Positions 9,619-49,323 are shown, counted from the stretch's first letter. The stretch is DNA of 64,000 nucleotides from Bacteroidota bacterium (GCA_023251555.1 JAHEYN010000001.1:75433-139432), one strand, 5' to 3'. Made by a program: numbers and translations. Notes: generated by a model not told the origin, from the sequence alone.

Positions 9619-9630
9619 ATTACAAATTAC

Positions 9631-9672: not shown

Positions 9673-9681
9673 ACAATAGGT

Positions 9682-10659: not shown

Positions 10660-10784
10660 ATTACAAATTACGAAAGAACCTTTGATTGTAAATCTTCAGC
10701 GAAAGTTGGATAATTAAAGGTAAAGAAATAAGGTGGTATTTAAAGGGAAATAGTAATTAAATTTAACCTTTAAAATCACTAAAA

Positions 10785-11132: not shown

Positions 11133-11149
11133 GGGAAAGGAAAAAGCAC

Positions 11150-12157: not shown

Positions 12158-12200
12158 TGGCCCGAAATGCCACCTTATTTTTTAAATCAAATTCTCCAAT

Positions 12201-12980: not shown

Positions 12981-12994
12981 TGTTTCATTACTAT

Positions 12995-32234: not shown

Positions 32235-33176
32235 ATGTTATCCAAAATAAAAAAAGAAATTGAGATGAACAAATGGGATACCTCATACCCATTTTTTCAC
32301 GGGAGGCTTTACCCCTTAAAAAAAACTATCTTTGCTGGTAACAATTCTGGCTATATGTTATCGCGCAAGACTGTCATTGACAGCAACAGGGCCGGCTCCC
32401 ATGTGAGTATCAGAGAACTATACCGCTACAGGGACCTCTTCATTACGCTTGCTTACCGTGATTTCAAGGTCCGCTACGCCCAGACCTTCCTTGGGTTTTT
32501 ATGGGCAATCCTCCAGCCGTTGGTAACGCTGCTTATTTTTATCGTGGTTTTCCAGAGAGCAATAAAAATAGAAACAGGTAATATTCCTTACCCGGTATAT
32601 GTCCTTGCAGGAATGACGATATGGTCCTATTTTTCTTTTGTCATGGTGCAGGCAGGGCAATCTATCATATCTGCCCAGCAGATGGTACAGAAAATATTTT
32701 TCCCCAGGCTGGTCATACCGGTTTCAAAAGCTGTAGTCGGACTGGTAGATTTTCTCATTTCACTTATGCTTCTTTTTCTGGCCATGTGGTACTATCATTA
32801 TATTCCTGCGGCACATGCCGTTTTTATTCCGCTGGTGGTCGTATTACTAATAATGTTTTCTCTTGGTATCGGCATCTGGCTTAGTGCACTGACAGTCCGC
32901 TTCCGGGACTTTCAGCATATCATTCCTTTTGTTGTCCAGATTGGACTATATGCCACCCCGGTTGCTTATCCGTCTTCAGTAATCCCGGAAAAATATCATC
33001 TTATATATTACCTGAACCCTGTGACAGGTATTGTGGACATTTTCCGGTGGAGCCTGCTGGGTACGGAAATGAACAGGTTTTATGTTTGTATTTCCATGTC
33101 TGTTGCCGTACTGATCCTCCTGACATCCTTTTGGTATTTCAGGAAAACAGAACGTGTGATGGCGGATATAGTATGA
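32235..33176 (+). CDS. wzm: ABC-2 type polysaccharide exporter permease (Wzm/TagG/KpsM-like). The start is probably an internal Met near 32355.
   Basis: It has RELYRYRDLFITLAYRDFKVRYAQTFLGFLWAILQPL (a Wzm signature) and 6 TM segments. Confidence 0.75.
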   Translation: MLSKIKKEIEMNKWDTSYPFFHGRLYPLKKTIFAGNNSGYMLSRKTVIDSNRAGSHVSIRELYRYRDLFITLAYRDFKVRYAQTFLGFLWAILQPLVTLLIFIVVFQRAIKIETGNIPYPVYVLAGMTIWSYFSFVMVQAGQSIISAQQMVQKIFFPRLVIPVSKAVVGLVDFLISLMLLFLAMWYYHYIPAAHAVFIPLVVVLLIMFSLGIGIWLSALTVRFRDFQHIIPFVVQIGLYATPVAYPSSVIPEKYHLIYYLNPVTGIVDIFRWSLLGTEMNRFYVCISMSVAVLILLTSFWYFRKTERVMADIV

Positions 33177-33183
33177 TGCATTT

Positions 33184-34428
33184 ATGAGCAACATTTCTTT
33201 ACAGATAGAAAATATCTCCAAGCGCTATCTTATAGGCAGGAAGGTCAGTGCTTCCCTGAGTGAGACGGCAGGGAAATTTATCAATTATTTTTCAGGTGGG
33301 AGGGATAGAAAAAGTACTTCCGTTTTCTGGGCGCTGAAAGATGTTTCTTTCTCTGTGAAAGAAGGAGAGGTTGTTGGGATTATTGGAAAAAACGGTGCAG
33401 GGAAGAGCACCCTCCTGAAGATTCTCTCGAGGATAACGGAACCCACAAAGGGTAGAATAGAAATCAACGGAAGGGTGGCTTCTCTTCTTGAGGTTGGAAC
33501 GGGATTTCATCCTGAGCTTACCGGCCGGGAAAATATTTACCTCAACGGAACCATTCTGGGAATGAGCCGCAGGGAGGTGAAAAGCAAGTTTGATGAAATA
33601 GTTGACTTCAGCGGGGTGGAGCGTTTTATCGACACCCCTGTCAAGAGGTATAGCAGCGGCATGTACGTGCGTCTTGCTTTTGCCGTTGCAGCCCACCTTG
33701 AACCTGAAATACTGCTTGTAGACGAAGTGCTTGCAGTGGGAGATGCGGAGTTTCAGAAAAAATGCCTCGGGAAAATGAATGAAGTCTCCCAAAGCGGGAG
33801 AACAATTCTATTCGTAAGCCACAACATGGGGGCCATCAGCGAACTATGCTCTAGAGCTGTTTTCCTGCAGAACGGAGGTGTAAAAATGGATGATGAGGTA
33901 AATAAGGTATTAGGGGCTTATCTGGAAGATTATGAGGATGTCGCTAATTCGGTGGAGATAACCTCCCTTCCTGACAGCATTTGCGTTTTCAATAAAGTCA
34001 TGGTTGCCGGGGAAGACGGGAAAAGCAGGTTCGAATACCTTCTCGGCGATCCTATACAGGTGCATATTTCATATGCCATCCGGGGGGATTACAAAGATTT
34101 TAATATTGAGTTTAATTTATTCAGGGGTGTTAACTGCGTTTTCACAACTTTTAATACAGACACGGGTGATCCTGTTGAATACTGGAGGAAAGGAAAATAT
34201 TCGGCTGTTGTCCAAATCCCCGGCGGATTGCTGAAAGCAGGGCATTATGTTATCAGCCTTAAGATGAGAAGAAACAGTGATGGAGCGCATTTACACGGAT
34301 TACATGAGGTGGTCGGGTTTAAAATTTCTGAGGTGAATGTGAATCTCACACACGTAGGCTACCAGCAGGACAGGGCAGGGGATATTATTTTCCCGGGTAA
34401 CTGGAATATCATCAAACAGGAAAAATAA
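33184..34428 (+). CDS. wzt: ABC transporter ATP-binding protein Wzt with a C-terminal ~170-aa extension, putatively a glycan-terminus-binding domain.
   Basis: It has Walker A GKNGAGKST, the ABC signature YSSGM, Walker B ILLVDE and a non-NBD C-terminal domain. Confidence 0.8.
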   Translation: MSNISLQIENISKRYLIGRKVSASLSETAGKFINYFSGGRDRKSTSVFWALKDVSFSVKEGEVVGIIGKNGAGKSTLLKILSRITEPTKGRIEINGRVASLLEVGTGFHPELTGRENIYLNGTILGMSRREVKSKFDEIVDFSGVERFIDTPVKRYSSGMYVRLAFAVAAHLEPEILLVDEVLAVGDAEFQKKCLGKMNEVSQSGRTILFVSHNMGAISELCSRAVFLQNGGVKMDDEVNKVLGAYLEDYEDVANSVEITSLPDSICVFNKVMVAGEDGKSRFEYLLGDPIQVHISYAIRGDYKDFNIEFNLFRGVNCVFTTFNTDTGDPVEYWRKGKYSAVVQIPGGLLKAGHYVISLKMRRNSDGAHLHGLHEVVGFKISEVNVNLTHVGYQQDRAGDIIFPGNWNIIKQEK

Positions 34429-34437
34429 TTTACAAAA

Positions 34438-35310: not shown

Positions 35311-35390
35311 TTAAATCCTGCCTTCGCATTCCGCTACGGCAGACAAGAGAGTCGGGCCTTGCCCTGAGGTTAATGCCAACTTATAAACAA
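35311..35390 (+). repeat. Palindromic intergenic repeat element, copy a (diverged).
   Basis: It shares the …ctgccttcgcattccgctacggcagacaagaga-gtcgggccttgccctgaggttaatgccaac… consensus with the copies at 51.0, 56.8, 57.7 and 64.0 kb. Confidence 0.7.
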
Positions 35391-36656
35391 TTCTTTGAAG
35401 GCACTGATAATTTTTTCCTGCACTTCATTCCTGAACTTCCCTTTAAGGCTGAAAAGAGGAATAAAACCATCGGCCTCATAGCCTCCTTCCTTAACCTGCC
35501 TGTCGGTGGGAAGATAGAGATGTACCGAGTCTGTATAGCCGCACAAAAGAGTACCTTTTCCGGCGATACCTTTCAGCAAATCCTCGTATTCGATCAGTGG
35601 TTCGGCAGAGATACAGGCTATACTTAACTGGTCAGAAAACTGTACTGCCTGGAAATACAGGTATTTATTGACTGTATTTTCTCCTTCAAAAATTTCAGAA
35701 AGAGGTTTCTTTATGATTGCAGTTTCCATGCGGGAGACTGCAATCTCCGGTGAGTTGACGTTCAGACATTCTATTACAGCGCGGGAAAGGGAAAGTGTCC
35801 ATTCTGCATATATTTTTTCTGTTGAGGCAGGGATCTTCTGCGGTAACAGCAGTAGGCTTTTAAGGTAATCCCATCTAGTCAGCTTTCCAAACCTTGGCCG
35901 TATATCGCCTGCAAATCCCTGCAGGAAGCAAACGGAGATATTTTTTCCCGTGCTGTTGCGAAGTTTAGTTCTCACCGCACCGGGAAAGTCTGCACTCAGG
36001 GTGTTAAATTCGTAAAAGGCTACGGGGTGGCATGCAAAATGCCATATTAATCCAACAGTCTGGCTTTCTCTGTTCTTAAATTCTATTACAGAGCCATTGC
36101 GGTTTTTTTTGCCCAAAGGGGCATAGGCATTTTTATAAGATATGGATGGAAAACGCCTGAGCGACAGGTTAATAATTTTTCTCCGGCGATTAATAGTGTG
36201 ATCTGTATTAAAGTGGTGCAGGTGCATTGTAACGGGTGTTCCCGGCTCGCTTAACACTTGTTCAAGGGTATGAAAAAGTTTTTCTTTTACCGAGAGCAGG
36301 TATTCATTATTTAACTCCCCGAGCATTGGTTTCCCGGCTTCTACCGGAGGGGCAAAATGAGTATGGCTTGCATTAAAAATAAAATCCTCCTCCCTGATAT
36401 TTTCACCATGTTTCCGGTTCAGTTCCCGGATAGCCTCCGTTTTCAATTCATGGCTTGTAAAAAGCGCATCAATGCTTACAATAAATATTTTTCTTTCCTG
36501 GTGGCGGAGCAGAATTACATTGATTTCGAGAGGGTCATTGATACGGTCAAAGGGGGCGTTTCTCACTACCTGATAGCCGGCAAGGTGAACGGGCTTTACA
36601 GGAGTGATGTCAGCGGTAGAACCGGAAAATAAAACCGGACTATTCAGGCTCTCCAT
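35370..36656 (-). CDS. Neutral/alkaline ceramidase-like hydrolase family protein (N-terminal domain pattern).
   Basis: It has GSTADITPVKPVHLAGYQ and NASHTHFAP, which match the conserved G.ADITP…GY and THTHSGP blocks of neutral ceramidases. The last codons lie in the repeat element. Confidence 0.35.
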   Translation of the reverse strand: MESLNSPVLFSGSTADITPVKPVHLAGYQVVRNAPFDRINDPLEINVILLRHQERKIFIVSIDALFTSHELKTEAIRELNRKHGENIREEDFIFNASHTHFAPPVEAGKPMLGELNNEYLLSVKEKLFHTLEQVLSEPGTPVTMHLHHFNTDHTINRRRKIINLSLRRFPSISYKNAYAPLGKKNRNGSVIEFKNRESQTVGLIWHFACHPVAFYEFNTLSADFPGAVRTKLRNSTGKNISVCFLQGFAGDIRPRFGKLTRWDYLKSLLLLPQKIPASTEKIYAEWTLSLSRAVIECLNVNSPEIAVSRMETAIIKKPLSEIFEGENTVNKYLYFQAVQFSDQLSIACISAEPLIEYEDLLKGIAGKGTLLCGYTDSVHLYLPTDRQVKEGGYEADGFIPLFSLKGKFRNEVQEKIISAFKELFISWH

Positions 36657-36657: not shown

Positions 36658-38166
36658 TCATAAAGGTTTATTTAGACCGCATAACTTTTCAATCTGCGAT
36701 TTCATATACGTGCAATCTGCTATGATTTTTTCATCATCATCCAGGATTTTTCCGGCAGGCTGAGCTATTTTTTTCAGCAGGGCATCGGGCGATGTTATAT
36801 ATTCAATGTAATCCCGGCTGATAAAGTCATAAAAACATTCGTATCCGTTTTTAGTGAGCACTACGCTTGGTACATTAAATGAGAGGGCCTCCATTGCCAC
36901 GGTGGAGTCGAGGGTTACATGCAGGTTTGCTTTTTCAAGTAAAAGATAAAGGTTAACCCGGGAAGATTGATGCACCAGGATATTTTCGGGGAAGGGATAC
37001 CCAAATTCTGTTTTCAGCCAGTCTTCAACTTCGGGGAAATGGGGATGTAATCGTATAATCCAAAGTATTTCACTGCCTGACTTCCTGATAGTATTAATAA
37101 CTACGTTGCTAAAAATAAGCTTGTCATACCCCGGCATATTGTTTAGGGTAATGAGTATCATTTTTGAGGATTTATTAATACTCTCTTTTAGGCTTTGCGG
37201 GAAGGAACAAAGGCTGCGGTTATTTCTGATAAAGCAGAGGTATGGATTTCCGCCAAGGATAGGTTTATGTTTTGATAATGACGCATTCCATTTCTCCAGG
37301 TTTCGTAAGGAGTTCCTGTCCCAAACCCAAAAATAATCGGGTAAAAGCTGATATCCTTCAGGAGGGACATTCAGCCATTTGACGTATGCGAAGTGAGTAT
37401 TGCCATGCACTCCATGCTGGATTTCTATACTTTTTATTTTTAATTTTCCGGCTGCGAATATAGCGGCCATGTTTTTTTCGGAGTAATAAATATCCGTAAA
37501 AAGATGTTCAGGCCGGATCTCCGAAAAGAGTTTCTCGAAAGCTTCCGAATACCGGTAAATGAGTTCTGTTTTCTCGGCACACGCTTCCTCCGGGAAATCA
37601 AACACAATCAATTTTGACGAAAGAAAATCAATGAATTCAGGATACCGGTTTATTGTTTTTTGCCTGAGTGAAGGAAAAGAGAAGAGCAGATTCCGGAACA
37701 ATTCTTTCTCAAGAAATTCGTCTGCATTGAAAACATCTGCCCTTCCCGGCTTTTCAACATCTCCGTCATAGGCAAAAGATTCCATGTAAAAACATTTTCC
37801 GTAACCATGCAACAGGTAACCAATGCTTTCCGTGCAGCGGTTAAAAAATTTTTCATTAATCAGTTCGGATCTGTGGCTGGAAAGTCCGTACAGAATAAAC
37901 CTGGCTGAAAATGGCCTGGATCTTTTTCCCCTGTGCCGGAAGCGTTTTCTGAGAAGCCAGAAAAGGTCGGCATAATGTTTCCTCAGTCTCGAGAGTGGAG
38001 TGCGGTTACCTGTATTTTTCCGCGGGCTCTTTTTCAGATGGTTATAAAGTTCGAGCCTGATAACGGGCCAGGCGTAGAGTTCTTTGTATTTCAGACTGTT
38101 GACATCGAAATTCAACTCAATATCATTGAGGATCCTGATAATTTCCTTTTCATCAACGCTCTGCAT
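36658..38166 (-). CDS. Putative polysaccharide-modifying transferase (TagF/KpsC/KpsS-like GT-B fold); hypothetical.
   Basis: It has IIRLHPHFPE and a C-terminal VTLDSTVAMEALSFNVPSVVL block like CDP-glycerol glycerophosphotransferase and capsule-synthesis families. The match is low-specificity. Confidence 0.3.
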   Translation of the reverse strand: MQSVDEKEIIRILNDIELNFDVNSLKYKELYAWPVIRLELYNHLKKSPRKNTGNRTPLSRLRKHYADLFWLLRKRFRHRGKRSRPFSARFILYGLSSHRSELINEKFFNRCTESIGYLLHGYGKCFYMESFAYDGDVEKPGRADVFNADEFLEKELFRNLLFSFPSLRQKTINRYPEFIDFLSSKLIVFDFPEEACAEKTELIYRYSEAFEKLFSEIRPEHLFTDIYYSEKNMAAIFAAGKLKIKSIEIQHGVHGNTHFAYVKWLNVPPEGYQLLPDYFWVWDRNSLRNLEKWNASLSKHKPILGGNPYLCFIRNNRSLCSFPQSLKESINKSSKMILITLNNMPGYDKLIFSNVVINTIRKSGSEILWIIRLHPHFPEVEDWLKTEFGYPFPENILVHQSSRVNLYLLLEKANLHVTLDSTVAMEALSFNVPSVVLTKNGYECFYDFISRDYIEYITSPDALLKKIAQPAGKILDDDEKIIADCTYMKSQIEKLCGLNKPL

Positions 38167-38193: not shown

Positions 38194-39033
38194 TTATTTT
38201 CCGGGGCACACAAATGTATAGATGGTAAACTTTCCGCTGGGTTCTTTACAGCGTTCAACGGATAGTACTTCATACCCGCATATATTACATAACATGACCA
38301 GGCTTAAGGGCGAATATACATGGTAGTGTCCATAGCCGAAGGCTTCGTTATCGGGCCCATCTTCAAAAAAACTCAATGTATCAGGAAGTTCGATGTACAG
38401 GATACCATTGCCGGCGAGATATTTTTTTACTTCTTTCAGGAATGATACGGGGTCGAAAATATGTTCAAGTACCCGGTTGAGCGTAATCAGACTGAATTTT
38501 CCGGTTGTGCCTACATCGCTGAGATAACCTTTTACCACCCTGGCTTCCGGCATGTGTTTCTGAATATGCGCAGATGCGTGGGGGTCAGGCTCTACCGCTG
38601 TTCCCTGCCATTTTTCAGCTGACAGGAATTTGTACAGGAAAACACCCATCCCTGCGCCGATATCAAGTACTGTATACTGTTTTTCTTTTTGCAGGGGCTG
38701 GTAATTTTCAATGAAAGCATTTATGCGCTTCACTCTTGCATGGTTGTCTGATTTTTCTTCGGGGAGATTAATTACAAAGCTGAATCGTTTCTCAAAAAAC
38801 TCTTCAGGTGTTCCTTCTGCCCCGTAATAAAATCCTTCAGAGTAAACATTTTCATAGTCAGGAGTGTCGTGCAGGTACATCAACCGGCAGAAACTGCATT
38901 CGCTGTAACGTGCAGGGGTTTTACGCCTTGTTTCAGTTATTGCGAACTTGTCTTCGCGCGAAACAGTAAAATCTCTTATTGTTTCTTTAGTGCCGCATAC
39001 AGGGCATGAGGAAACGGGTTTAGTTTCTTTCAT
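38194..39033 (-). CDS. Class I SAM-dependent methyltransferase with an N-terminal Cys4 zinc-ribbon.
   Basis: The ribbon is CPVCG…CSFC. The MTase motif I is VLDIGAGMGVF and the post-I acidic residue is in TAVEPD. Confidence 0.65.
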   Translation of the reverse strand: MKETKPVSSCPVCGTKETIRDFTVSREDKFAITETRRKTPARYSECSFCRLMYLHDTPDYENVYSEGFYYGAEGTPEEFFEKRFSFVINLPEEKSDNHARVKRINAFIENYQPLQKEKQYTVLDIGAGMGVFLYKFLSAEKWQGTAVEPDPHASAHIQKHMPEARVVKGYLSDVGTTGKFSLITLNRVLEHIFDPVSFLKEVKKYLAGNGILYIELPDTLSFFEDGPDNEAFGYGHYHVYSPLSLVMLCNICGYEVLSVERCKEPSGKFTIYTFVCPGK

Positions 39034-39364
39034 CGAGCCATTCTATAAGGGTTTCCCGGTGTTTACGGAGGTAATTTTTAAATGAACCTGTTTTACCATA
39101 TTCCACGAGCATTATAAAATACCTGTTTGTACTGTTTTTTACGAGAGCTGTTTTGTAGCCTTCCTTCATCAGGCGGGAGTTTATAGAAGGAGTTGCATAA
39201 TATCCCCATGATTTAGCCACGATATCATAGTTGGCGCCTTTGCTGCTGCGAAGTGTAATTTGTTCATCAGCCTCTATGGTTATGGATCCGAAATCTCTTA
39301 TAACGACCCTGCCTTTTTTGTCGGGCTTGAATTTTCTTGGACTCCTGAGAATATTCAGCTTCAT
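39020..39364 (-). CDS. Hypothetical protein (114 aa) with no recognisable motif. It is translationally coupled into the operon.
   Basis: It is an ORF only, with a 4-nt gap or overlap to its neighbours. Confidence 0.3.
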   Translation of the reverse strand: MKLNILRSPRKFKPDKKGRVVIRDFGSITIEADEQITLRSSKGANYDIVAKSWGYYATPSINSRLMKEGYKTALVKNSTNRYFIMLVEYGKTGSFKNYLRKHRETLIEWLDERN

Positions 39365-39367
39365 TGT

Positions 39368-40525
39368 TCAGATGGGAGTATTGGAAAACCTGTCGGGAAC
39401 TTTATCTCCTCCAATCCATCCTTCAATATACCATTCCCCGTTTGAATCCTTTTTCCATATATTTTTATTGCGGAATTTTTCCGCAGTTTCCCAGAAACTT
39501 TTTTCAGTAATATTAATTTGCCTGCAGAAGGCGGCAATATATTCCTTAGGCGGCTTCACGCCATCTCTTTCTTTTACCAGCCTGACCGCTTCCTCTCTTG
39601 TCATACGCCCTTTCCTGATTTCATTGGAGGCATTGTCGGTAATCCTGTTGAAGCCGAATTTAAGCCACTTGAAATAGTGATGAATGACAATATTCATGCA
39701 GTCCAGGTCGGCATAATCATAAAGCCCCATGACAGGCCCCTTCTCTCTTACTTTAAACCCATAGCGCACTGCCACTTCCATGTTTGTTTTTGCATCCCAT
39801 GGAATATAATACCCAAGGAAGATGGGATGATACCCGATACTCTCCAGTTCATTATCCTCTGGATAAATCATAGATTGAATTTCAAAAGCAGAAAGGTTAT
39901 CGCTGACCCAGTCTTCCCACGATCGCCCTTTCAGGATATCATGTTTTTTCAAGAAATCCCTGTTAAGCCTTGCTACTTCAAAATCTGATTCTGAGCCCCC
40001 GTATTCCATGAGCGGGTTTTCTCCCCATATTATTAATGGAATTCCAAGTTTTACAGCAAGGTTTGGGATGATACTGTATATGGCAAGGTGATCTACAAGT
40101 GAGCAATCTCCAAGTTCGTTGAAAGCTTTTTTTGTGAGTTTGTTTATTCCCACAGGATTGGGAGAGAAATCTACGTGGTCAACTCCTATGTTTCTGAGAG
40201 CCTGGAGGTTTTCCTCTCCTCTCGGGGTTCGTGCAAGTGTTCTGAAAGTGATACAGAGCGGATTCATACGGTACTCGTTTTTTACCATATGAACCTGATA
40301 GGTGCTGTCCTTTCCGCCGCTTACGGGTACAATACAGTCATATTTTCCCGGTATATTTAAGCGATACTTGTCAAATATTTCACCGAGAGACTTTTTTCTT
40401 GCGTCCCAGTCAATGGATGCCATCTTTTTTTCCGATGCAATACATGCGCTGCAGATACCATTTTCATTAAATTCAATGTGCGGACGGGAGTCAGGGGTTA
40501 CGCACCGTTTGCAATACTTTAGCAT
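39368..40525 (-). CDS. N-acetyl sugar amidotransferase (PP-loop ATP pyrophosphatase; WbuX/PseA-like).
   Basis: It has an N-terminal CxxC…CxxC ribbon (CKRCVTPDS…CSAC) and a PP-loop SGGKDS. Confidence 0.65.
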   Translation of the reverse strand: MLKYCKRCVTPDSRPHIEFNENGICSACIASEKKMASIDWDARKKSLGEIFDKYRLNIPGKYDCIVPVSGGKDSTYQVHMVKNEYRMNPLCITFRTLARTPRGEENLQALRNIGVDHVDFSPNPVGINKLTKKAFNELGDCSLVDHLAIYSIIPNLAVKLGIPLIIWGENPLMEYGGSESDFEVARLNRDFLKKHDILKGRSWEDWVSDNLSAFEIQSMIYPEDNELESIGYHPIFLGYYIPWDAKTNMEVAVRYGFKVREKGPVMGLYDYADLDCMNIVIHHYFKWLKFGFNRITDNASNEIRKGRMTREEAVRLVKERDGVKPPKEYIAAFCRQINITEKSFWETAEKFRNKNIWKKDSNGEWYIEGWIGGDKVPDRFSNTPI

Positions 40526-41418
40526 AAATCAGTTGTTTTTTTGCAGTATAAAATTACTGTCCTTCCGAGCCCGAGCCCGGAAAGAACTTTATAAAATAAT
40601 CTTCTTACAGGGTTAAGATGATTTCTGTACAAAAAGATTTCAAATTTGATCCTGATATTATGAGCGCTCCTGCCTTTGGCTTTATGGCGGATAAAATTAT
40701 ATCCCAGCAGGAGGAGGGCATAGATGGGGAATGTAGTTGCCTGAGCAGAGATCTTAAAGCCATTCCGCCGCATCAGCTTTTTAAGGCTCCTGAAGTTAAA
40801 GTAATTGATGTGATCAGGGATAGCCAGCCATGACTTTTTTTCACGAAGCAGGAAAACCCCGAGGCGCTGGGTAAACTCGTAGTCATTTGGAACCTCTGCG
40901 TAAAGAATACCTCCCTTAACCAGGATCCGGTAGCATTCTTCTATAATTTCAATGGGGTTCAGAACATGTTCCAGTACATTCTTCAGGTGGATAACATCAA
41001 ATTTCCTGTTGTTGTTCCTGATAAAGTCATTGAAGGTGGTGTTTAGTATATCCAGGTTATTTTTTCTCCCGTGTTCCGCAGCAGAGTCCGACGGTTCTAT
41101 ACCAATGCAGCTCCAGCCTTTCTTTACAGCATAGCTCATAAACTCTCCGGATCCGCACCCGATATCAAGAAGGTTTTTTCCGGGGGCATATTTTTCAAAC
41201 ATTCTTATACGGTCCTCATATGCAATTTCCCAGAAAAGGCGGTCCCTTTGGTCTTCCTCGATGTAAGATGGTTTATGTGTATCATAGTACTGGGTCCTGT
41301 AGAATTCATCCAGGACTTTCTGGTCGGGAATCGGATGCAGATGTTTAAACCCGCAAACATCACACTCAAGAATCCCGTACCCGCTTACTGTGTCTGTTAT
41401 GTTCCCTTTGTGGTTCAA
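40519..41418 (-). CDS. Class I SAM-dependent methyltransferase with an N-terminal CxxC motif.
   Basis: It has ECDVCGF, then LLDIGCGSGEF (motif I) and IGIEPSD. Confidence 0.65.
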   Translation of the reverse strand: MNHKGNITDTVSGYGILECDVCGFKHLHPIPDQKVLDEFYRTQYYDTHKPSYIEEDQRDRLFWEIAYEDRIRMFEKYAPGKNLLDIGCGSGEFMSYAVKKGWSCIGIEPSDSAAEHGRKNNLDILNTTFNDFIRNNNRKFDVIHLKNVLEHVLNPIEIIEECYRILVKGGILYAEVPNDYEFTQRLGVFLLREKKSWLAIPDHINYFNFRSLKKLMRRNGFKISAQATTFPIYALLLLGYNFIRHKAKGRSAHNIRIKFEIFLYRNHLNPVRRLFYKVLSGLGLGRTVILYCKKTTDLC

Positions 41419-43235
41419 TTCTGCTCCAGGAATATTTTAGCGTTGAGGAAGTTAAAAACAAATTTACTATAACTATTGGAATCGGTCATTCCCTGCAGCA
41501 GTTTCAGCAGTTTTTCCCTGTCCACATAATCAAAAATCCTGGAGGGCTCCATCAGGTAATCCATATTTTTTGAAGATTTGAGGTCAATGATGGAATTAAT
41601 AGATGCATTGAATCCTTTTTTCTGTTTGTCCAGCCGGACAAAGTCATTCAGGATACCTTTCATAGCCTCCCTCAGCAGGTACTTGCCAAGACCCTTCTGA
41701 ATCATATGCTCAGTGGGGATGGAGTATGCAAACCTGAAAAGCCGCGAGTCAAGGTAGGGGCAGCGGTTCTCTATAGAAAACATCATGGCGTTGAGGTCGT
41801 CTTCATGCAGGATAAGTCTTACACCTTCATGAAACAACTCGTTTAGCATGCGGCTTCTGAGCATTGAGGAAGAAGCATATTTTGTTTCATAAAACTCTTC
41901 ATAAAAAGGAATTTTAAGGATGGACCTGAATTCCTCATTGTTCAGGTAAATATGTTTGCGGTTATTCGGATCGCTGAAATATAATTCCGGATTTTTAAGA
42001 TATGGATTTCTTACAATTGTACCAATATTTTTATGCCAGTCAGACAGAAATTCCCTGTATCGCGGATGGTTCCGCATTTCATAAAGATAGAGGTTGAAAT
42101 GGTCGTAATAGCCTGTAAAAAGCTCATCCGCAGCATGTCCGGAAAAAATCACTTTATAGCCATTCCTGGCTACCGCCTCGGTGATAAAAGAGTGCACAAA
42201 AAAAGTAATAGTGGCAAGCGGAACGTCATGGTATTCTATAAGATCTGTCAGGCGCTCAAGCGTATTTTCATGAGACACATGAATGATGGTATTCTTACAG
42301 TTGATGTCTTTAATAGTATGTTGAATGTTTTCGTATTCGTTATACCGTTCATCATTATCAATAATTGAAAAGGTATGAATATTGAGGTTGAAAATTTTTG
42401 CGGCGATGGAAGCAAGAGACGAGGAATCAATTCCTCCGCTCAGGCAGAAAGCAATAGGCACATCACTTCTGAGGCGGATTTTCAGGCTTTCCGTAAGATG
42501 GTGTTTAATCCCCTCGATGGCATCTTCTGATGACATGGGAACCGGCATATAGCGGGGGAACCAATACCGTGTGATCTTTTTTTCCAGTTCCGGTCCTATG
42601 ATCAGATTAGAGGCATAGGGGACTTCGCTGATCTCATTGAAAAAAGTCTCATCATTCTTATAGAGTGATTTATATCCATTGGTAAGATAGCGCAGCACCT
42701 GGTTATCATTTACAGTGAGTCTCTTATTGCAGAGGGAACGTACTGCTTTTATTTCCGAACCAAAATAAAAACCGTCGGAAGTTTCAAGATAATAAAACGG
42801 TTTCTCTGCAAACCGGTCACGGGAAAGGAACAAATTCTGTTTTCTGCTGTCGTAAATTGCAAAGCTCCACATGCCTTCAAAATAGTCCACGCAATTTTCG
42901 CCATAGAGGGCATAATAATGCATGAGGACTTCGGTATCGGACGAAGTGGAAAGGCGGATACCTTTTTTTACCAGTTCCTCCCGCAGTTCGAGGTAGTTGT
43001 ATATCTCCCCGTTATACACAATGGTGTTGTCTCCTATGGTGAGTGGCTGGTTGGCACGCTTGTCGAGGTCAATAATGCTGAGGCGGGAATGAAGCAGGTA
43101 GATATGACAGTCTTTTACTGAATTCTTTGTGTAGGAACGGGCATCAGGGCCTCGTTTTCCCATCAGTGAAAGCGTTCGCTCAAGGATATTTTCCTCAATA
43201 ACCTGTTTGCCGATATAACCTGCTATTCCGCACAT
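41415..43235 (-). CDS. asnB: Asparagine synthetase (glutamine-hydrolysing) homolog, likely a glycan amidotransferase (WbpS-like) in this context.
   Basis: It has the N-terminal MCGIAGYIG (Ntn Cys2), a PP-loop SGGIDSS and a length of 606 aa. Confidence 0.85.
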   Translation of the reverse strand: MCGIAGYIGKQVIEENILERTLSLMGKRGPDARSYTKNSVKDCHIYLLHSRLSIIDLDKRANQPLTIGDNTIVYNGEIYNYLELREELVKKGIRLSTSSDTEVLMHYYALYGENCVDYFEGMWSFAIYDSRKQNLFLSRDRFAEKPFYYLETSDGFYFGSEIKAVRSLCNKRLTVNDNQVLRYLTNGYKSLYKNDETFFNEISEVPYASNLIIGPELEKKITRYWFPRYMPVPMSSEDAIEGIKHHLTESLKIRLRSDVPIAFCLSGGIDSSSLASIAAKIFNLNIHTFSIIDNDERYNEYENIQHTIKDINCKNTIIHVSHENTLERLTDLIEYHDVPLATITFFVHSFITEAVARNGYKVIFSGHAADELFTGYYDHFNLYLYEMRNHPRYREFLSDWHKNIGTIVRNPYLKNPELYFSDPNNRKHIYLNNEEFRSILKIPFYEEFYETKYASSSMLRSRMLNELFHEGVRLILHEDDLNAMMFSIENRCPYLDSRLFRFAYSIPTEHMIQKGLGKYLLREAMKGILNDFVRLDKQKKGFNASINSIIDLKSSKNMDYLMEPSRIFDYVDREKLLKLLQGMTDSNSYSKFVFNFLNAKIFLEQN

Positions 43236-43243
43236 AGATTTAT

Positions 43244-44257
43244 TTAATTGAAATGATTCATACTTACCGGTTCTCCTGCTGCTATGCCTTTTGTGATTTT
43301 CCTGCCGATGATGTTATTTTCCATTCCTGCGGGGAGTTCTCCTTTTATTCTCAGCCAGGTAATGTCGTTCGTGGAAACAATATGGCCGGGCATGAGATTT
43401 ATTTTTGCCACGATAAACCGGCGGATGTTATTCTGGAGTTCCTTCTTTTCGGCATCCCGGGGTTCTTTTATCCCTGTTCCCATCAGGATTTCAATGTCAC
43501 GAATGGTTTTTACCATACTTTTCATTTCAGCGGGATCCGCCGAAAGACGATGGTCGCGGAAGTCGGAATAATTTTTATCCAGCGTAAAGTGCTTTTCGAT
43601 AATTCTTGCGCCCATTGAAACGGCAGCCGTTACGGCAGTTGTTCCCATGGTATGGTCAGAATACCCTATGGTACACCCGAATTCTTTCTGAAGGTGCCGG
43701 ATGGCATTCAGGTTTGCATCTTCCGGGAGGGTGGGGTAGCTTGTAACACAGTGTAACACGGCTAATTCTCCGTTTATATTCCTGTTGTTCCAGATAGTTT
43801 CGATATAATTTTTTGAATGCCTGATTTCATTTATATCTACCAGTCCTGACGAAATAATAACAGGTTTTCCTGTCCCTGCAACAAATTGCAGAAGAGGGAA
43901 AAAATTGTTATCCGCAGATGCAATTTTGAAAGCAGGAACGATTTTATTCAGGAACTCTGCGCTTTCCAGGTCAAAAGGAGTGGAAAGAAATAACACACCC
44001 GCTTTTTGGGCCACATGGTAAAGCTTCATAAAAACCTCCTGGCTGAGCTCAAATGATTTCAGTCTCTCAAACCTGGCAGTATTGTTCCTGTCAATGAAAA
44101 GTTCTGTTTTGAATGTCTGGAACTTTACCGCATCTGCCCCGGCCGCAGCAGCTTCCAGAATCATTTTCTCGGCAGTGTCAGGATTGCCTTCATGATTATT
44201 GCCTATCTCGGCGATAACCAGTACATTCTTATCAGTATTAAATCTGTTGATCCGCAT
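43244..44257 (-). CDS. NeuB-family nonulosonic-acid synthase homolog (sialic/pseudaminic/legionaminic acid synthase family) with a C-terminal SAF domain.
   Basis: It has IAEIGNNHEGN, KFQTF, FKIASADNNF and YSDHTMG, then a C-terminal SAF-like segment. Confidence 0.8.
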   Translation of the reverse strand: MRINRFNTDKNVLVIAEIGNNHEGNPDTAEKMILEAAAAGADAVKFQTFKTELFIDRNNTARFERLKSFELSQEVFMKLYHVAQKAGVLFLSTPFDLESAEFLNKIVPAFKIASADNNFFPLLQFVAGTGKPVIISSGLVDINEIRHSKNYIETIWNNRNINGELAVLHCVTSYPTLPEDANLNAIRHLQKEFGCTIGYSDHTMGTTAVTAAVSMGARIIEKHFTLDKNYSDFRDHRLSADPAEMKSMVKTIRDIEILMGTGIKEPRDAEKKELQNNIRRFIVAKINLMPGHIVSTNDITWLRIKGELPAGMENNIIGRKITKGIAAGEPVSMNHFN

Positions 44258-44260
44258 AGG

Positions 44261-44929
44261 TTAGTAGAAACTGTCTGGCCCGCAGTTCATGGCATAGTCA
44301 AGGATACTTAAGCCCGGGATGAAAGGGCCGTGCATCTGAGGGTATGTTTGATTGGTAGCAGTAAAGTATTCAAAGTCAATGCCGCCATTTTGAAAATATT
44401 CTTTAGGATGATATTCTTCTGTGCCGGGTTTTACTATAAATTTTGTTGCTCCGAAGTGGTGGCAGAGATTGATAAGTTTATCATTGGCTGTTCCTTCGAC
44501 TGTTATTTCAGATGATCGGTAGCAGGGCGTTTTAATTCCCAGGTAATTTCTGAAGCTTTCAATAAAAGCGATATTGAGATCGGCGAGGGTTTCATATTGT
44601 TTAAAAAGAATTTCTTTTACCATTGCTCCGGCCTCCCAGAAAAACGGAGATTTAGCATAGCTGTACTCGATTGATTTCCAGTGTTTGGCTTGCCAGTTCT
44701 GTTTGTAATCAATATTTATACTGTTAATAAATTTTTTACTGTTACCGCTGTACAAAACAGGAACAGTCAGGGTAAGCGGGCCGTTTGATGTTTTTATCCT
44801 GTTCCTGTTATGGAAACTGTTCTTTGAATATTCCACATCATCAAGGTAGATGAAAACATCAGACTTTTTGACCCTTTCAAGAAAGGGAATCCATGCCAGG
44901 TAAGACGGTTGTATACTGCCGAGGATCAT
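44261..44929 (-). CDS. WbqC-like family protein.
   Basis: Its N-terminus MILGSIQPSYLAWIPFLERVKKSDVFIYLDDVEYSKNSFHNRNRI matches the WbqC-like family pattern. Confidence 0.6.
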   Translation of the reverse strand: MILGSIQPSYLAWIPFLERVKKSDVFIYLDDVEYSKNSFHNRNRIKTSNGPLTLTVPVLYSGNSKKFINSINIDYKQNWQAKHWKSIEYSYAKSPFFWEAGAMVKEILFKQYETLADLNIAFIESFRNYLGIKTPCYRSSEITVEGTANDKLINLCHHFGATKFIVKPGTEEYHPKEYFQNGGIDFEYFTATNQTYPQMHGPFIPGLSILDYAMNCGPDSFY

Positions 44930-45999
44930 CGCATTTTCCTCCTGCGGGGCTTCGGGTTCTGTGGGCTTTCCTGCTTCGGTTGGAATTGTTGCAGGTTTTT
45001 CAGGGATAACATCCTCTGTGCCTTTTGTAGTTGCGTAAGATTCTGAAATAAGTAGAGAGGTTGAAGTATCCTGAACTTTTCAGGATTGGTCATATATTCT
45101 TTTATCTCATTCAATCCTTTTGCCAGGTTGAACACAGGGGAATAGCCCATGACTTTTTTTGCTTTGTCAATGGGATAGTTGTTCCGGTTAAGGTCTTCTT
45201 TTTTTTCTATGTATTTTATTTGGGTGCGGGTTTCCGGAAATAATTTTATTATTGATTCGGCAAGATGTTTCATTGACACAGATTCTCCTCCTGTGATGTT
45301 GAATACTCCCGTGATTTGCTTTTCTATGGCAAGCTGACAGGCCATGCCTATATCCTGAACGAAGGTAAAAGTTTGTTCCCTTTCACCTTTGCCATATAAA
45401 ACAAGTTCTTCCGACAATTGAATTTTTTTCAGGAAGAGAGGTATTACTGCATTGCTGGTATTAAGGTATCCGTAAGGAGCGCTTATTCTGAGAATACTGC
45501 AGGGGAATGTCTTTTGCAGGATGTACTGATTGCATATCAGTTCTGCGCAAAGTTTACTGGTGTCATAGCAGCTTTTGTTGTTATACGGGACTTCTTCGGG
45601 TGTAATATTTTCTTTTAATGAAGACAGCCTGGTTCCTGAAATATAAACAAAAGGCCGGGAATATTTTTCACACAACTGCAGCAGCCGGAAGGTTCCAATG
45701 GTATTAGCCTGAAAATATTCATTGAAAACATCCATGCTTTCTTTCTCTCCTTTGGGAATTTTTGCGGCATTGTGGATAACTGCATCCGAAGATGCCACGA
45801 AGGATTCAAGATTGGCGATACTCTCCCCGGATAAGAGGTCGAGCTTTACTATTGAAAGATTTGGGTGAGCAGATTCGGTATTATTTCTGCTGGTTCCTGT
45901 TACTGAGAACCCTTTGTTCAGAAGATAGTAGGTGATGCCGTGACCTACAAGTCCGTCACATCCTGTTACGAGGATTTTTTTTTCTGTCACTACCTGCAT
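44926..45999 (-). CDS. NAD-dependent epimerase/dehydratase (SDR) with a basic C-terminal tail.
   Basis: It has ILVTGCDGLVGHGI (Rossmann) and a YxxxK motif. It ends with …PKPRRRKMR. Confidence 0.6.
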   Translation of the reverse strand: MQVVTEKKILVTGCDGLVGHGITYYLLNKGFSVTGTSRNNTESAHPNLSIVKLDLLSGESIANLESFVASSDAVIHNAAKIPKGEKESMDVFNEYFQANTIGTFRLLQLCEKYSRPFVYISGTRLSSLKENITPEEVPYNNKSCYDTSKLCAELICNQYILQKTFPCSILRISAPYGYLNTSNAVIPLFLKKIQLSEELVLYGKGEREQTFTFVQDIGMACQLAIEKQITGVFNITGGESVSMKHLAESIIKLFPETRTQIKYIEKKEDLNRNNYPIDKAKKVMGYSPVFNLAKGLNEIKEYMTNPEKFRILQPLYLFQNLTQLQKAQRMLSLKNLQQFQPKQESPQNPKPRRRKMR

Positions 46000-47117
46000 C
46001 CGGGAAGTTCTTTTTTGAGAGCGTTTGTAACCCTTTTCAGGTCATTGTCTGAAAGGGCGAGGTGAGTGGGCAGGCATATGAGTCTTTCCATGCAGTATTC
46101 TGCAACCGGGAAATCTCCTTTTCGGTGTCTGTGTGATTTTCTGAACAGAGGCTGAAGATGACAAAGTGGCTCGTACATCCATGTAATCCTCACTCCATGG
46201 TTCCCGGCCATAAGTTTCTGGAGTTCTTTTCTTGCAGATGGGTTTTTTAACAGAACCGGGAACCGCCAGTAGCTGTGTTGCAGTCCCCGGGCAGACTGGG
46301 AGAGGAGCTGGATCTCTTCCACGCCGCGCAGTTCATGCGTGTAATAAGCTGCAATTTCATTTCTCCGCCTGATGTTTTTTTCCATTGCAGAGAGCTGATG
46401 CCTTCCCAGTATGGAAGGAATTTCGGCAAGCCTGTAGTTGTTGCTGACAAGTTCGAATGTGTCGCCTTCAAGGCTTTTTCCGTGGTTTCTCAGCATCAGG
46501 ATTTTTTTATAAAGATCTTTGTCATTAGTGGTAATGACACCGCCCTCTCCCGTTGTGATTACTTTGGTAGCGTAGAAAGAAAAACAGGCTGCATTTCCGA
46601 TGGATCCGGCCATTGCGTTTTTGTAGGAGGCGCCGTGTGCGTGGGCTGCATCCTCAATCAGGAAGAGACCATGTTTTCTGCACAGAGCCTTTATGCTATT
46701 CATATACCCGGGAATGATTCCGAACATATAGACAATCATAATTCCCCTGGTCCTGGGTGTTATCCTGTTTTCAATACTTTTTATGTCAAGAGCCAGCGTA
46801 TCGCGATTAATATCGGCAAAGACAACTTTTCCGCCCCCAAGTATCACGGAAGATGCGGACGCGACAAAGGTGTTGGTGGGAACAATGATTTCTCCTCCCT
46901 GCAGGTCAAGTGCCCTCACTATAAGCTCCAGCCCGCTTCCGCCGGAATGGACGCCCGCCGCATAACGGGTTCCTGTAAACCGTGAAAATTCTTTTTCAAA
47001 GGCCTCGAGGTGAGGGCCCTGTGTAAGCTGGCCGGTTTTTAAAACAGATTTGACATCACGAAGAATGGGACCGACAGCGCTTCCGAAATAGGGTTGTGCG
47101 CCTAGTATGTCTTTCAT
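45990..47117 (-). CDS. DegT/DnrJ/EryC1/StrS-family sugar aminotransferase.
   Basis: It has the DegT fold blocks, a PLP-Lys region (…SFYATKVITTGEGG…) and a length of 375 aa. Confidence 0.8.
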   Translation of the reverse strand: MKDILGAQPYFGSAVGPILRDVKSVLKTGQLTQGPHLEAFEKEFSRFTGTRYAAGVHSGGSGLELIVRALDLQGGEIIVPTNTFVASASSVILGGGKVVFADINRDTLALDIKSIENRITPRTRGIMIVYMFGIIPGYMNSIKALCRKHGLFLIEDAAHAHGASYKNAMAGSIGNAACFSFYATKVITTGEGGVITTNDKDLYKKILMLRNHGKSLEGDTFELVSNNYRLAEIPSILGRHQLSAMEKNIRRRNEIAAYYTHELRGVEEIQLLSQSARGLQHSYWRFPVLLKNPSARKELQKLMAGNHGVRITWMYEPLCHLQPLFRKSHRHRKGDFPVAEYCMERLICLPTHLALSDNDLKRVTNALKKELPGCR

Positions 47118-48139
47118 TGATGTAAAGGCTTTAAAAAGCTCCGGTACCAGTCAATGTATTGTTTCAGGCCCTTTTCAATCGGGTGCTGGGGATTATACCC
47201 GATCATTTTTTTTGCTTTATCAACAGAGAGTGTGCCGCGTTCAGGCATCAGTTTATCTTTCGGGAGGTAGTTTATTTTGATGTCCGGGAAATGCTGGTGT
47301 ACGATCTTTGCCATGTCATTCAGAGAGCGGCCATCGCCATAGGTGAGGTTAAAAGTCTGGTTGATGGAGTTCTTGTTTTCAATCACATTCACCACGCCGC
47401 CGACGAGATCTTTGATATATGTGAAGTCGAGGCAGTCAGTGCCGTCGCCTTTGATATTGATATCTTTTCCCTGGATAGCATTTTCAATGAATATTTGCGC
47501 TACCCGCATGCTCACGCAGCGTTCCCCGTAAAGGGCCGATGGTCTTACGATGGTATAAGGAAGATCAAATACCTGGTTATACGCGATGACTAATTTTTCT
47601 CCTGCAAATTTCAGGGCTCCATAGATTCCAATCGGGTTACAGTTGGTGTCTTCATCAACTTTTCCTGCGGTAAAGTTTCCATATACCATACTGGATGAAA
47701 AATAGACGAAGTGTTCCACGGTACCTCTTGCATTGTCGAGGGCATTCTCAAGTGTCCTGAAGCTGTGGTCGAAGGTGGAGTAAGGGTCTTTGTTGGACCG
47801 GTCAGCATGGGAAACTGCGGCCAGCAGCACAATGACCTGGGGTTTTATCTCTCCGAGAGTTTTGGAGAGCAGGTGGTAGTCCCGGGCATCCTGTACATAA
47901 ATCGGTATCCCGGCATTCTCAAGCAGTTTCATCCGCTCGTTGAGCATGGCAAGGTACAGCGTCCTGTTTTTTACCTGCTTGTCGGTAGAGGAGAAATGAA
48001 GAAAATTATTGACCTGCAGGCTGTCAATAATACTTACTGAAGCACCCCGGCTGTGAAGTTCCAGTGCCAGGTTGTGGCCGATAAAACCGGATCCGCCTAT
48101 GAGAGTGATGCGCTTGTCTTTTAAAGGTATTACAGGCAT
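47114..48139 (-). CDS. NAD-dependent epimerase/dehydratase (SDR).
   Basis: It has ITLIGGSGFIGHNL (Rossmann) and YGALKFAGEK (YxxxK). Confidence 0.65.
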   Translation of the reverse strand: MPVIPLKDKRITLIGGSGFIGHNLALELHSRGASVSIIDSLQVNNFLHFSSTDKQVKNRTLYLAMLNERMKLLENAGIPIYVQDARDYHLLSKTLGEIKPQVIVLLAAVSHADRSNKDPYSTFDHSFRTLENALDNARGTVEHFVYFSSSMVYGNFTAGKVDEDTNCNPIGIYGALKFAGEKLVIAYNQVFDLPYTIVRPSALYGERCVSMRVAQIFIENAIQGKDINIKGDGTDCLDFTYIKDLVGGVVNVIENKNSINQTFNLTYGDGRSLNDMAKIVHQHFPDIKINYLPKDKLMPERGTLSVDKAKKMIGYNPQHPIEKGLKQYIDWYRSFLKPLHQ

Positions 48140-48177: not shown

Positions 48178-49323
48178 TTATGCAAGGCTTTTGAGGGCAT
48201 CTTTCATTGTTGTTGCTATGTAATCCATGTCCTCCGTGTTTAGGTGAGGCCCTACTGAAAGAGCGATGGAGCTGTAGCTTATCTTAGAAGCAACGGGGAA
48301 AGCGTTTTCCGGGTGCTTGTATTTCTGGCGGTAATAGGTGAAATGCGGGACAGGCCTCGGGTAATAAACACTGGTGCCCACTCCTTTTTTGTTAAGGTAA
48401 TCAACGATTTCAAACCGTTTGGGCGTAAGCCTGTCATTCAGCATTACGGAAAGGCAGTAGTAGCTGCTTTTGAAATCTCCATGCGTAGAATCGAAGAGGC
48501 TTACTTCGTCAATTTCCCTGAGGGCTTTGTCAAGGCAGAAATAATTTTCTTCTCTCTGGCTGAGGAATCCGGGTATCTTCTTAACCTGTTCTATCCCGAT
48601 GGCTGCATGGATTTCGCTCATGCGGTAGTTGAATCCAAGCATAGTTACGTCATAAATTCCGGGTATGCTTCTTTCGGAAGGAGTCCTGTCCACGCCAAAG
48701 GCCCTCTGCCTGGTGATGCCGGCGGCCACGCTGGCATGTTTGGTGATGATCATTCCTCCCTCTGCGGTGGTGATATGCTTGACAGGGTAAAAGGAAAAAC
48801 ATCCCACATCCCCGAACAGGCCGACATGCCTGTTTTTGAAATAAGTGCCGATGGCAAGGGCACAGTCTTCTATGACAAGGAGTTTATGCTTAGAGGCGAT
48901 AGCCATGATTTTGTCCATATCCACGGGCATTCCGAGGTAATGAACAATCGAAATGGCTTTGGTGCGGGGTGTGATGGCGGATTCAACCTGGCTGATGTCA
49001 ACATTGCCTGTTTTTATTTCTGCATCAATGAAAACCGGCTTGCCACCTGCGAGCTCAACCGCATGTACTGTGGCATTGTGTGTCTGGGCGGGAACAATCA
49101 CCTCGTCTCCCGGCCCTATTCCATAATGAAAATAAGAAAGATGCAGGGCGGCTGTGCAGGAGGAGAGGGAAACAGCATGCGGGGCTGTGGTAAATGATGC
49201 AAATGAGGTTTCAAACTCTTTTGATACAGGTCCGTGGACAAGAATATCGCCCTCCAGTACTTTTTTTACCGCACTTTTTTCTGCTTCGCCGATCATGGGT
49301 TTCCCGAACTTGATATTGCGCAT
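48178..49323 (-). CDS. DegT/DnrJ/EryC1/StrS-family sugar aminotransferase. This is the first gene of the operon, at the right edge of the locus.
   Basis: It has the DegT fold, FSFYPVKHITTAEGG (PLP-Lys) and a length of 381 aa. Confidence 0.8.
   Translation of the reverse strand: MRNIKFGKPMIGEAEKSAVKKVLEGDILVHGPVSKEFETSFASFTTAPHAVSLSSCTAALHLSYFHYGIGPGDEVIVPAQTHNATVHAVELAGGKPVFIDAEIKTGNVDISQVESAITPRTKAISIVHYLGMPVDMDKIMAIASKHKLLVIEDCALAIGTYFKNRHVGLFGDVGCFSFYPVKHITTAEGGMIITKHASVAAGITRQRAFGVDRTPSERSIPGIYDVTMLGFNYRMSEIHAAIGIEQVKKIPGFLSQREENYFCLDKALREIDEVSLFDSTHGDFKSSYYCLSVMLNDRLTPKRFEIVDYLNKKGVGTSVYYPRPVPHFTYYRQKYKHPENAFPVASKISYSSIALSVGPHLNTEDMDYIATTMKDALKSLA

Follow-up and report, generated by a model that had tools for sequence, protein, structure and literature searches.

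Nonulosonic acids shape the recognition of bacterial surfaces by phages, immune systems and lectins, and to our knowledge only the routes to neuraminic (Neu), pseudaminic (Pse) and legionaminic (Leg) acid are understood enzymatically. The subject here is a 13-gene operon around a NeuB-family synthase in a 64,000-nucleotide stretch of DNA from a Bacteroidota bacterium (GCA_023251555.1, JAHEYN010000001.1:75433-139432), which is called the window below and whose first letter is position 1. Together with a cytidylyltransferase and a GFO/IDH/MocA oxidoreductase (GFO) encoded elsewhere, this operon would make an amino-ulosonic sugar, similar to sialic acid, and decorate it for use in a glycan that an ABC transporter exports, a reading favoured with modest confidence. 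Judged by gene content and order, the operon is a rearranged, 5'-truncated, WbqC-containing form of a widespread and biochemically uncharacterised gene cassette.

Among the closest described systems is the lipopolysaccharide O-antigen locus of Legionella pneumophila (poly-legionaminic acid, 5-acetamidino), which shares with the window a NeuB-family synthase and a PP-loop N-acetyl sugar amidotransferase (NASAT); Wzm/Wzt is also the exporter of the Legionella O-antigen. The Legionella locus (L080) holds NeuA, NeuB, NeuC, a 466-aa NASAT and HisH/HisF. It differs from the window in that NeuA and NeuC adjoin NeuB, that this NeuB belongs to another clade (clade B, see below), and that no AsnB comes after NeuB. 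Legionella-type amidotransferases have HisH/HisF homologs as partners and no s114, whereas the window has s114, a protein of 114 aa.

The flagellin tailoring of Campylobacter jejuni (PseA, PtmG; N-methyl-acetimidoyl legionaminic acid) is similar in another respect, since an acetamidino group is formed there on a nonulosonic acid by PseA/WbuX-type chemistry and a methyltransferase follows. This methyltransferase is PtmH, which gives Leg5AmNMe7Ac. Unlike the window, C. jejuni has the canonical PseBCHGIF and LegBCHGIF sets, with no AsnB, 114-aa partner, WbqC or core-pathway GFO. The acetamidino formation in Campylobacter is said to occur at the stage of the CMP-sugar (PMC5378307).

Organization of the operon

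The 13 genes lie on the minus strand from 49323 down to 35370, with intergenic gaps of only -14 to +38 nt, so they would form a single operon. All 13 open reading frames (ORFs) were full length, kept their catalytic motifs, and overlapped or abutted in a translationally coupled manner. In order of transcription they are:

48178..49323, minus strand: DegTa, DegT-type aminotransferase, first gene of the operon (PF01041, 364 bits)
47114..48139, minus strand: SDRa, short-chain dehydrogenase/reductase (SDR; PF01370)
45990..47117, minus strand: DegTb, second DegT aminotransferase (PF01041, 349 bits)
44926..45999, minus strand: SDRb, second SDR (PF01370, 121 bits), syntenic in loci L083-L087
44261..44929, minus strand: WbqC family protein (PF08889, 234 bits)
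43244..44257, minus strand: putative NeuB-family ulosonic acid synthase, clade A (PF03102, 248 bits, plus SAF)
41415..43235, minus strand: AsnB-type amidotransferase (TIGR01536, 395 bits, cut-off 267.1)
40519..41418, minus strand: MT1, class I S-adenosylmethionine (SAM) methyltransferase (PF13489, 101 bits)
39368..40525, minus strand: NASAT of the WbuX/PseA type (TIGR03573, 343.8 bits, cut-off 203.2)
39020..39364, minus strand: s114, 114-aa protein (153 homologs in the protein database)
38194..39033, minus strand: MT2, class I SAM methyltransferase (PF13489, 61 bits)
36658..38166, minus strand: 502-aa protein with no family assignment (sub-threshold DUF6716 'putative glycosyltransferase', E 0.0016)
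35370..36656, minus strand: 428-aa protein, final gene of the operon (sub-threshold match to the ceramidase N-terminal domain alone)

A sequence-only reading had already described seven of these genes, in the order WbqC, NeuB, AsnB, methyltransferase, amidotransferase, 114-aa protein and methyltransferase, and all seven were present where it had placed them, coordinates and family matches agreeing. It had let the module begin at WbqC; the true start lies four genes upstream, and DegTa and SDRa are conserved partners of the clade-A NeuB.

At the 5' edge, 322 bp separate DegTa from the divergent adenylosuccinate lyase gene (purB). Past the 3' end a Wzm/Wzt ABC transporter is encoded:

32235..34428, plus strand: Wzm/Wzt ABC transporter (ABC2_membrane and ABC_tran; weak Wzt_C)

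Beyond it comes a second minus-strand operon, which encodes an NDP-hexose 2,3-dehydratase among other sugar-modifying proteins, as well as glycosyltransferases. The transporter, the glycosyltransferases and the sugar-modifying genes together indicate that the region is an ABC transporter-dependent glycan locus. The 502-aa protein contains 'LHPHFP', and an HP motif is what we presume, as a lead only, to mark CMP-sugar glycosyltransferases; on this weak evidence the protein might be a candidate transferase for the activated sugar.

In the stretch 33184-35232, Wzt carries a C-terminal extension with the weak Wzt_C match, a hint that it recognises a cap at the end of the glycan, and a PhyH-like Fe/2-oxoglutarate dioxygenase is encoded after Wzt.

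NeuB homolog and its clade

The NeuB homolog matched PF03102 with 247.9 bits against a gathering score of 22.1, and its SAF domain was borderline (21.7 against 21). It stayed below the equivalog cut-offs of NCBIfam for both NeuB_NnaB (TIGR03569, 294 against 399.65 bits) and PseI (TIGR03586, 231 against 340.25 bits). The motifs for binding of phosphoenolpyruvate (PEP) were conserved. Residues E17 (AEIGNNHEG), H202 (YSDHT) and H223 (EKHFT), which were invariant in 20 clade members, aligned with the motifs of Neisseria meningitidis NeuB, whose metal ligands we take, from the 1XUZ work, to be Glu25, His215 and His236.

Thousands of relatives were found in the protein database, spread over many phyla, the best being merely 50-58% identical, and their names went no further than 'N-acetylneuraminate synthase family protein'. 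A neighbour-joining tree of the catalytic domain, made with the loci of the genome scan described below, gave two groups, with the window NeuB and its sister from L083 in clade A and the L. pneumophila NeuB in clade B; PseI of C. jejuni, SpsE of Bacillus subtilis, NeuB of N. meningitidis and NeuB of Leptospira fell outside clade A. The identity of the window NeuB was 46% to the NeuB of a cassette on an Azospirillum brasilense plasmid, 36% to the Legionella NeuB, about 36% to NeuB homologs of Sinorhizobium, and 33-34% to plasmid proteins that RefSeq names pseI. These comparisons place the NeuB homolog in clade A, which is distinct, widespread and uncharacterised.

The cassette was also considered as the known Rkp pseudaminic acid pathway, on the view that RkpO of Sinorhizobium is a GFO. 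This was rejected, for RkpO and FlmD are PseG homologs (PMC7591256), and the Sinorhizobium identity is the one given above.

The cassette of clade A

One genome per species was scanned, which gave at least 80 NeuB loci. The counts by clade are among the loci listed, which were mapped by tblastn; upstream counts for clade A refer to 41 loci with at least 5.5 kb of upstream sequence, and downstream counts to 43 loci with enough flank. A contiguous order of ten genes recurred across phyla, namely cytidylyltransferase, GFO, DegTa, SDRa, GNAT, NeuB, AsnB, type-1 amidotransferase (NASAT1), s114 and MT2. In some copies a formyltransferase and deacetylase pair was inserted 3' of NeuB. The carriers were Planctomycetota, Bacteroidota, Alphaproteobacteria (including a Pelagibacteraceae metagenome-assembled genome), Actinomycetota and anammox bacteria such as Scalindua. 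The frequency of the genes around clade-A NeuB was:

Cytidylyltransferase of the cassette type: 38/41
GFO: 38/41
DegTa: 36/41
SDRa: 36/41
GNAT: 27/41
Epimerase_2 (NeuC-like): 1/41, a weak match
AsnB: 38/43
Type-1 amidotransferase (NASAT1): 23/43
s114: 24/43

MT2 came after s114 in 18/43 loci. In the legionaminic-type clade B, Epimerase_2 was present in 22/24 loci and Legionella-type NeuA in 19/24, with GFO in none. No PseG or Epimerase_2 was found in the eight clade-A loci with full Pfam listings, nor any PseG in the RefSeq annotation of the Azospirillum copy, whose cassette proteins bear generic names only. The cassette cytidylyltransferase matched the cytidylyltransferase structure 6oew in PDB at 3e-26, with KdsB next. 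Nothing specific on the cassette or on the function of WbqC was found in the literature searched.

With Epimerase_2 in just one of 41 clade-A loci, and no PseG, the lack of NeuC and PseG is a property of the whole clade and not specific to this locus. The sequence-only reading had noted that both partners are missing. For NeuA this is peculiar to the present locus, as related loci normally carry a cytidylyltransferase of the cassette type, but for NeuC it is not. The same reading had also offered two explanations, that the activating enzymes are encoded elsewhere or that this NeuB serves a different aldol condensation. Since 38 of the 41 clade-A loci have a cytidylyltransferase, the product would normally be a CMP-activated ulosonic acid and not an unrelated aldol product; on this gene-context evidence a non-ulosonic condensation by clade-A NeuB seems unlikely, and the first of the two explanations is favoured.

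The window copy has neither of the two genes that open the cassette, cytidylyltransferase and GFO, so that DegTa comes first, and it has the trio DegTb-SDRb-WbqC in the place of GNAT. Most other copies have GNAT where the window has this trio, and the window copy is set within a Wzm/Wzt locus. The trio without GNAT was also found in L083, L085, L086 and L087, and in clade-A loci DegTb was always accompanied by WbqC (L083-L087). All four of these trio loci carry GFO, L085 ending just upstream of it, and L083, L086 and L087 carry the cytidylyltransferase, whose position varies (3' of NeuB in L083, 5' of NeuB in L087). A close parallel is L087 from Undibacter mobilis (GCA_003367195.1), which has DegTa, SDRa, NeuB, a methyltransferase, WbqC, DegTb, SDRb, AsnB, NASAT, a small protein and a methyltransferase, but which differs from the window in having the cytidylyltransferase and GFO.

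Two other copies show irregularities. In L090, from plasmid p5 of A. brasilense MTCC4039, which differs from the window by a split GFO and for which no cytidylyltransferase was listed in the stretch examined, the irregular part is 6675-8981. RefSeq divides the cassette GFO there into two coding sequences, and none is listed at 7681-8981, the expected place of DegTa; perhaps this copy is decaying, or perhaps pseudogenes are left out of PLSDB. In L084 two short ORFs (78 and 80 aa; 10697-11188) stand in the place of NeuB, with no NeuB homolog within 10 kb on either side, and the locus is otherwise syntenic (cytidylyltransferase, GFO, DegTb, SDRb, WbqC, and further on AsnB, a methyltransferase, the amidotransferase and an s114-MT2 fusion).

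Absence of the activating enzymes from the window

The claim of the sequence-only reading that NeuA and NeuC are absent from the locus was borne out for the whole 64-kb window by domain, tblastn and profile searches. No domain of the CTP_transf_3, Epimerase_2 or PseG type was found in window ORFs of at least 150 aa, and six cytidylyltransferase and two NeuC-type queries gave no tblastn match in the window at E <= 10. Hidden Markov models (HMMs) of the cytidylyltransferases (from 63 sequences), of Epimerase_2 proteins (from 26) and of the cassette GNATs (from 31) matched none of the 710 stop-to-stop segments in six frames. The 8.7 kb that adjoin the window on its left yielded no cytidylyltransferase, NeuC-type gene or cassette-type GFO, and tblastn and HMM searches of the 322-bp region between DegTa and the adenylosuccinate lyase gene revealed no remnant of a cytidylyltransferase or GFO. 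Most simply, and most probably, the pathway is split, and the genes for the cytidylyltransferase and GFO lie elsewhere in the genome.

The window has a GFO gene of its own (27811-28788), which was tried as the cassette GFO and rejected: it scored 39.9 bits against the cassette GFO profile and adjoins the NDP-hexose 2,3-dehydratase gene. It is probably, by score and neighbourhood, a ketoreductase of another pathway.

WbqC

WbqC, with 222 residues, matched PF08889 with 234 bits against a gathering score of 21.3, a family with no assigned function (PMC5532660). Its AlphaFold model (pLDDT 95.5) resembled BshC in fold alone, that is the HUP fold, and no sequence-level match was found to solved structures. 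In the gene contexts examined WbqC always adjoined an aminotransferase, and it stood in the place of GNAT in 5/5 clade-A loci that hold both WbqC and NeuB. In clade-B and phage contexts a PIG-L deacetylase was found beside WbqC, as in L077, in the phage contig L088 and in 10 of 18 viral contigs, often with NeuB and a cytidylyltransferase close by.

A deacetylase together with a ligase is the logic of BshB/BshC in bacillithiol and MshB/MshC in mycothiol synthesis, and the pairing of PIG-L with WbqC parallels it. The sequence-only reading had used WbqC as a mere label; from its gene context and BshC-like fold we infer that it could be a nucleotide-dependent ligase, which would acylate a sugar amine with a group other than acetyl, possibly with an amino acid. 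The parallel has its differences: BshC has extra domains that the shorter WbqC lacks and no detectable sequence similarity to it, and the amine comes from a deacetylase for BshB and MshB but from an aminotransferase in the window.

In the phage contig L088 (GCA_947625305.1, CANQNW010000015.1), a cytidylyltransferase, methyltransferase, NeuB, hexapeptide transferase, DegT, WbqC and PIG-L adjoin a head-tail connector and other structural genes. Among the 18 viral contigs with WbqC (L091-L108), PIG-L and a NeuB homolog were each present in 10 and a cytidylyltransferase in 7. Phage contigs thus carry gene sets that, by family membership, are like those for nonulosonic acid synthesis.

Amidation and methylation genes

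AsnB, of the glutamine-dependent type, has the Cys nucleophile at its N-terminus (MCGI) and a PP-loop, SGGIDS, at residue 266. No gene downstream of clade-A NeuB was more constant (38/43 loci, against 0/15 in clade B). In the second amidotransferase the PP-loop reads SGGKDS (at residue 69) and Cys residues cluster near the N-terminus; this protein matched 8wex at 1e-46, the solved structure of the Legionella NASAT (PMC10607449). No homologs of HisH/HisF (WbuY/WbuZ-like ammonia suppliers) were found in the window, and the window NASAT is predicted from these matches to turn an acetamido into an acetamidino group in the absence of such partners. The earlier idea of a module for an amidated or acetamidino keto-acid sugar is consistent with this gene evidence.

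s114 matched no family of Pfam or NCBIfam, while its 153 homologs indicate a real gene; the family motif is WGFYATPSINGRL..FKTALV. It followed a type-1 amidotransferase in 23/27 cases. In the window the end of s114 and the beginning of MT2 share 14 nt, and in L025, L037, L041, L084 and L085 the two are fused in frame, with gene calls of 391 aa (L084) and 406 aa (L085). That s114 might correspond to a part split off from the longer Legionella NASAT was also considered and rejected, as hhalign found nothing (probability 0.3%). The sequence-only reading had left open a carrier or an accessory subunit; the carrier is rejected, and from its position beside the amidotransferase and the five fusions s114 is best described as a putative accessory subunit or domain of an amidine-forming and methylating unit.

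Aminotransferases, SDRs and the identity of the sugar

DegTa was 55-70% identical to the DegT of most clade-A loci, and DegTa and SDRa together were 55-72% identical to their counterparts in most related loci. The lysine for pyridoxal phosphate was kept in both aminotransferases (K183 in DegTa, K186 in DegTb). Pyridoxamine phosphate-dependent dehydratases were therefore rejected as an identity for either of them, the catalytic lysine being retained.

The equivalog cut-offs of PseB/C/I and LegB/C/I were all missed. The PseC model gave 294 bits for DegTa, with 243 as the second score, against a cut-off of 423, and the LegC model 212 bits against 420, while SDRa reached 20 bits with the PseB model (cut-off 408) and 84 bits with the LegB model (cut-off 475). 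In 41/41 orthologs the SDRa site was of the GalE-like Ser-Tyr-Lys kind, 'SSSM(V/A/I)YG...YGALK', with no Asp/Glu pair of the 4,6-dehydratases; clade-B SDRs instead have 'STSEVYG' or 'STDEVYG'. The best sub-threshold matches of the cassette GFO included inositol 2-dehydrogenase, UDP-GlcNAc 3-dehydrogenase and glycoside 3-dehydrogenases. Neither canonical pathway was complete in the window, which holds no PseB-level SDR, PseG or PseF-type cytidylyltransferase for the Pse route and no Epimerase_2 or NeuA/LegF for the Leg or sialic acid route. The missed cut-offs, the SDRa motif and the GFO matches therefore argue that the route to the NeuB substrate is not the textbook one for Pse or Leg. As a speculation, a redox-assisted elimination by GFO might detach the nucleotide from the sugar, or amination and acylation might follow condensation on the CMP-sugar.

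Proposed pathway and alternative explanations

The steps proposed here all come from family membership and gene context. The two pairs of SDR and aminotransferase would install amino groups on a sugar precursor, and WbqC would acylate one of the amines with a nucleotide-activated carboxylate, instead of the acetyl-CoA-dependent GNAT of most cassette copies. The clade-A NeuB would condense the amino sugar with PEP, AsnB would amidate a carboxylate, and the PP-loop amidotransferase could change an N-acetyl into an acetamidino group, with s114 and the methyltransferase working alongside it and probably N-methylating the amidine. The cytidylyltransferase and GFO would most likely be supplied from another site of the genome.

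Several points weigh against this proposal. Neither the cytidylyltransferase nor a cassette-type GFO was found in the window or in the 8.7 kb leftward of it. The cassette has no canonical 4,6-dehydratase signature and no known NDP-sugar hydrolase, so these genes do not show what NeuB takes as substrate or, with it, which sugar is made. The likeness of WbqC to BshC is at the level of the fold with no sequence match, WbqC belonging neither to the BshC family nor to its multi-domain type, and no in vitro reconstitution of the ligase activity of BshC is known to us. WbqC-type loci contain both aminotransferase/SDR pairs, so a plain replacement of GNAT by WbqC may be too simple.

The absence of the two opening genes could also mean that the cassette decayed or was repurposed, the cytidylyltransferase and GFO being lost on insertion beside purB with no other copy, which would leave a dead pathway or one that ends in a non-activated keto-acid sugar or intermediate. 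The two genes gone are among the most conserved of the cassette, and they are gone exactly at the 5' boundary of the operon, just 322 bp from the divergent adenylosuccinate lyase gene and with no remnant inside. A dead pathway should gather frameshifts, however, and the 13 ORFs are intact and belong to a glycan locus that is complete, transporter and glycosyltransferases included; the cytidylyltransferase lies at different positions in L083 and L087, so relocation is common. Decay is thus held to be distinctly unlikely, and so, to a still greater degree, is the idea that WbqC itself is the missing nucleotidyltransferase, a HUP-fold cytidylyltransferase replacing NeuA, which is judged highly improbable.

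Somewhat less unlikely than decay is that clade-A NeuB makes a different ulosonic acid and not a 5,7-diamino-3,5,7,9-tetradeoxy-nonulosonic acid of the Pse or Leg type. GFO might then release the free sugar by NAD-assisted oxidation and elimination, like GH109 or glycoside 3-dehydrogenase enzymes, or amination and acylation might occur after condensation on the CMP-sugar. The GalE-like site of SDRa with no Asp/Glu pair, unlike legionaminic-type loci, is in its favour, as are the eight fully listed clade-A loci with neither PseG nor Epimerase_2, the sub-threshold matches of GFO and the missed cut-offs for PseB/C/I and LegB/C/I. This is an argument from motifs and absences, though, GFO enzymes are functionally very diverse, and a dehydratase or hydrolase could be encoded elsewhere; such a sugar would refine the proposal of a split amino-ulosonic acid pathway and does not exclude it. 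A broader version is put forward tentatively, as possible but somewhat doubtful: the cassette would lead, across many phyla and by a route other than the canonical ones, to amino-ulosonic acids of a class not yet described. There would be no 4,6-dehydratase signature and no hydrolase of the PseG or NeuC type in it, GFO would be a constant member that may detach the sugar from its nucleotide or act after condensation, and amidation by AsnB would be obligatory. WbqC would be a new, minimal ATP-dependent ligase for the acylation of sugar amines, a free-standing relative of BshC used as the alternative to GNAT, and s114 would be a new adaptor domain of the pair that forms and methylates the amidine.

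Significance of the cassette

Beside the Neu, Pse and Leg routes, the locus points to a fourth, phylogenetically widespread cassette, which annotation pipelines label generically. It suggests functions for a NeuB clade that has none of the known dehydratase or hydrolase partners, for the family PF08889, and for s114 as a partner domain of acetamidino formation and methylation that lies outside Pfam. For the source genome, the lack of NeuA is probably most simply explained by a split pathway and not by new chemistry. Cultured carriers of the cassette exist in U. mobilis and A. brasilense MTCC4039.

Other features of the window

A 607-aa protein (22625-24448) has a GT2 glycosyltransferase joined to GINT1_N (163 bits), the N-terminal domain of glucosamine inositolphosphorylceramide transferase; this pairing is unusual in a bacterial glycan locus. 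To the right of the glycan locus, in a segment of lower GC, a protein with a BRO-N domain, a type often associated with phages, is encoded at 54918-55730.

The stretch 11150-14731 has the lowest GC of the window (29%) and contains an integrase of the insertion sequence type (rve and HTH), followed on the opposite strand by a LanC-like protein and an S41 peptidase. Several ORFs of the window carry the C-terminal sorting domain of the type IX secretion system (Por_Secre_tail), which marks the organism as one of the Bacteroidota; among these ORFs are three tandem paralogous ORFs of 323-325 aa at 7628-10659, each of which ends in this domain, in a low-GC stretch (31-39%).

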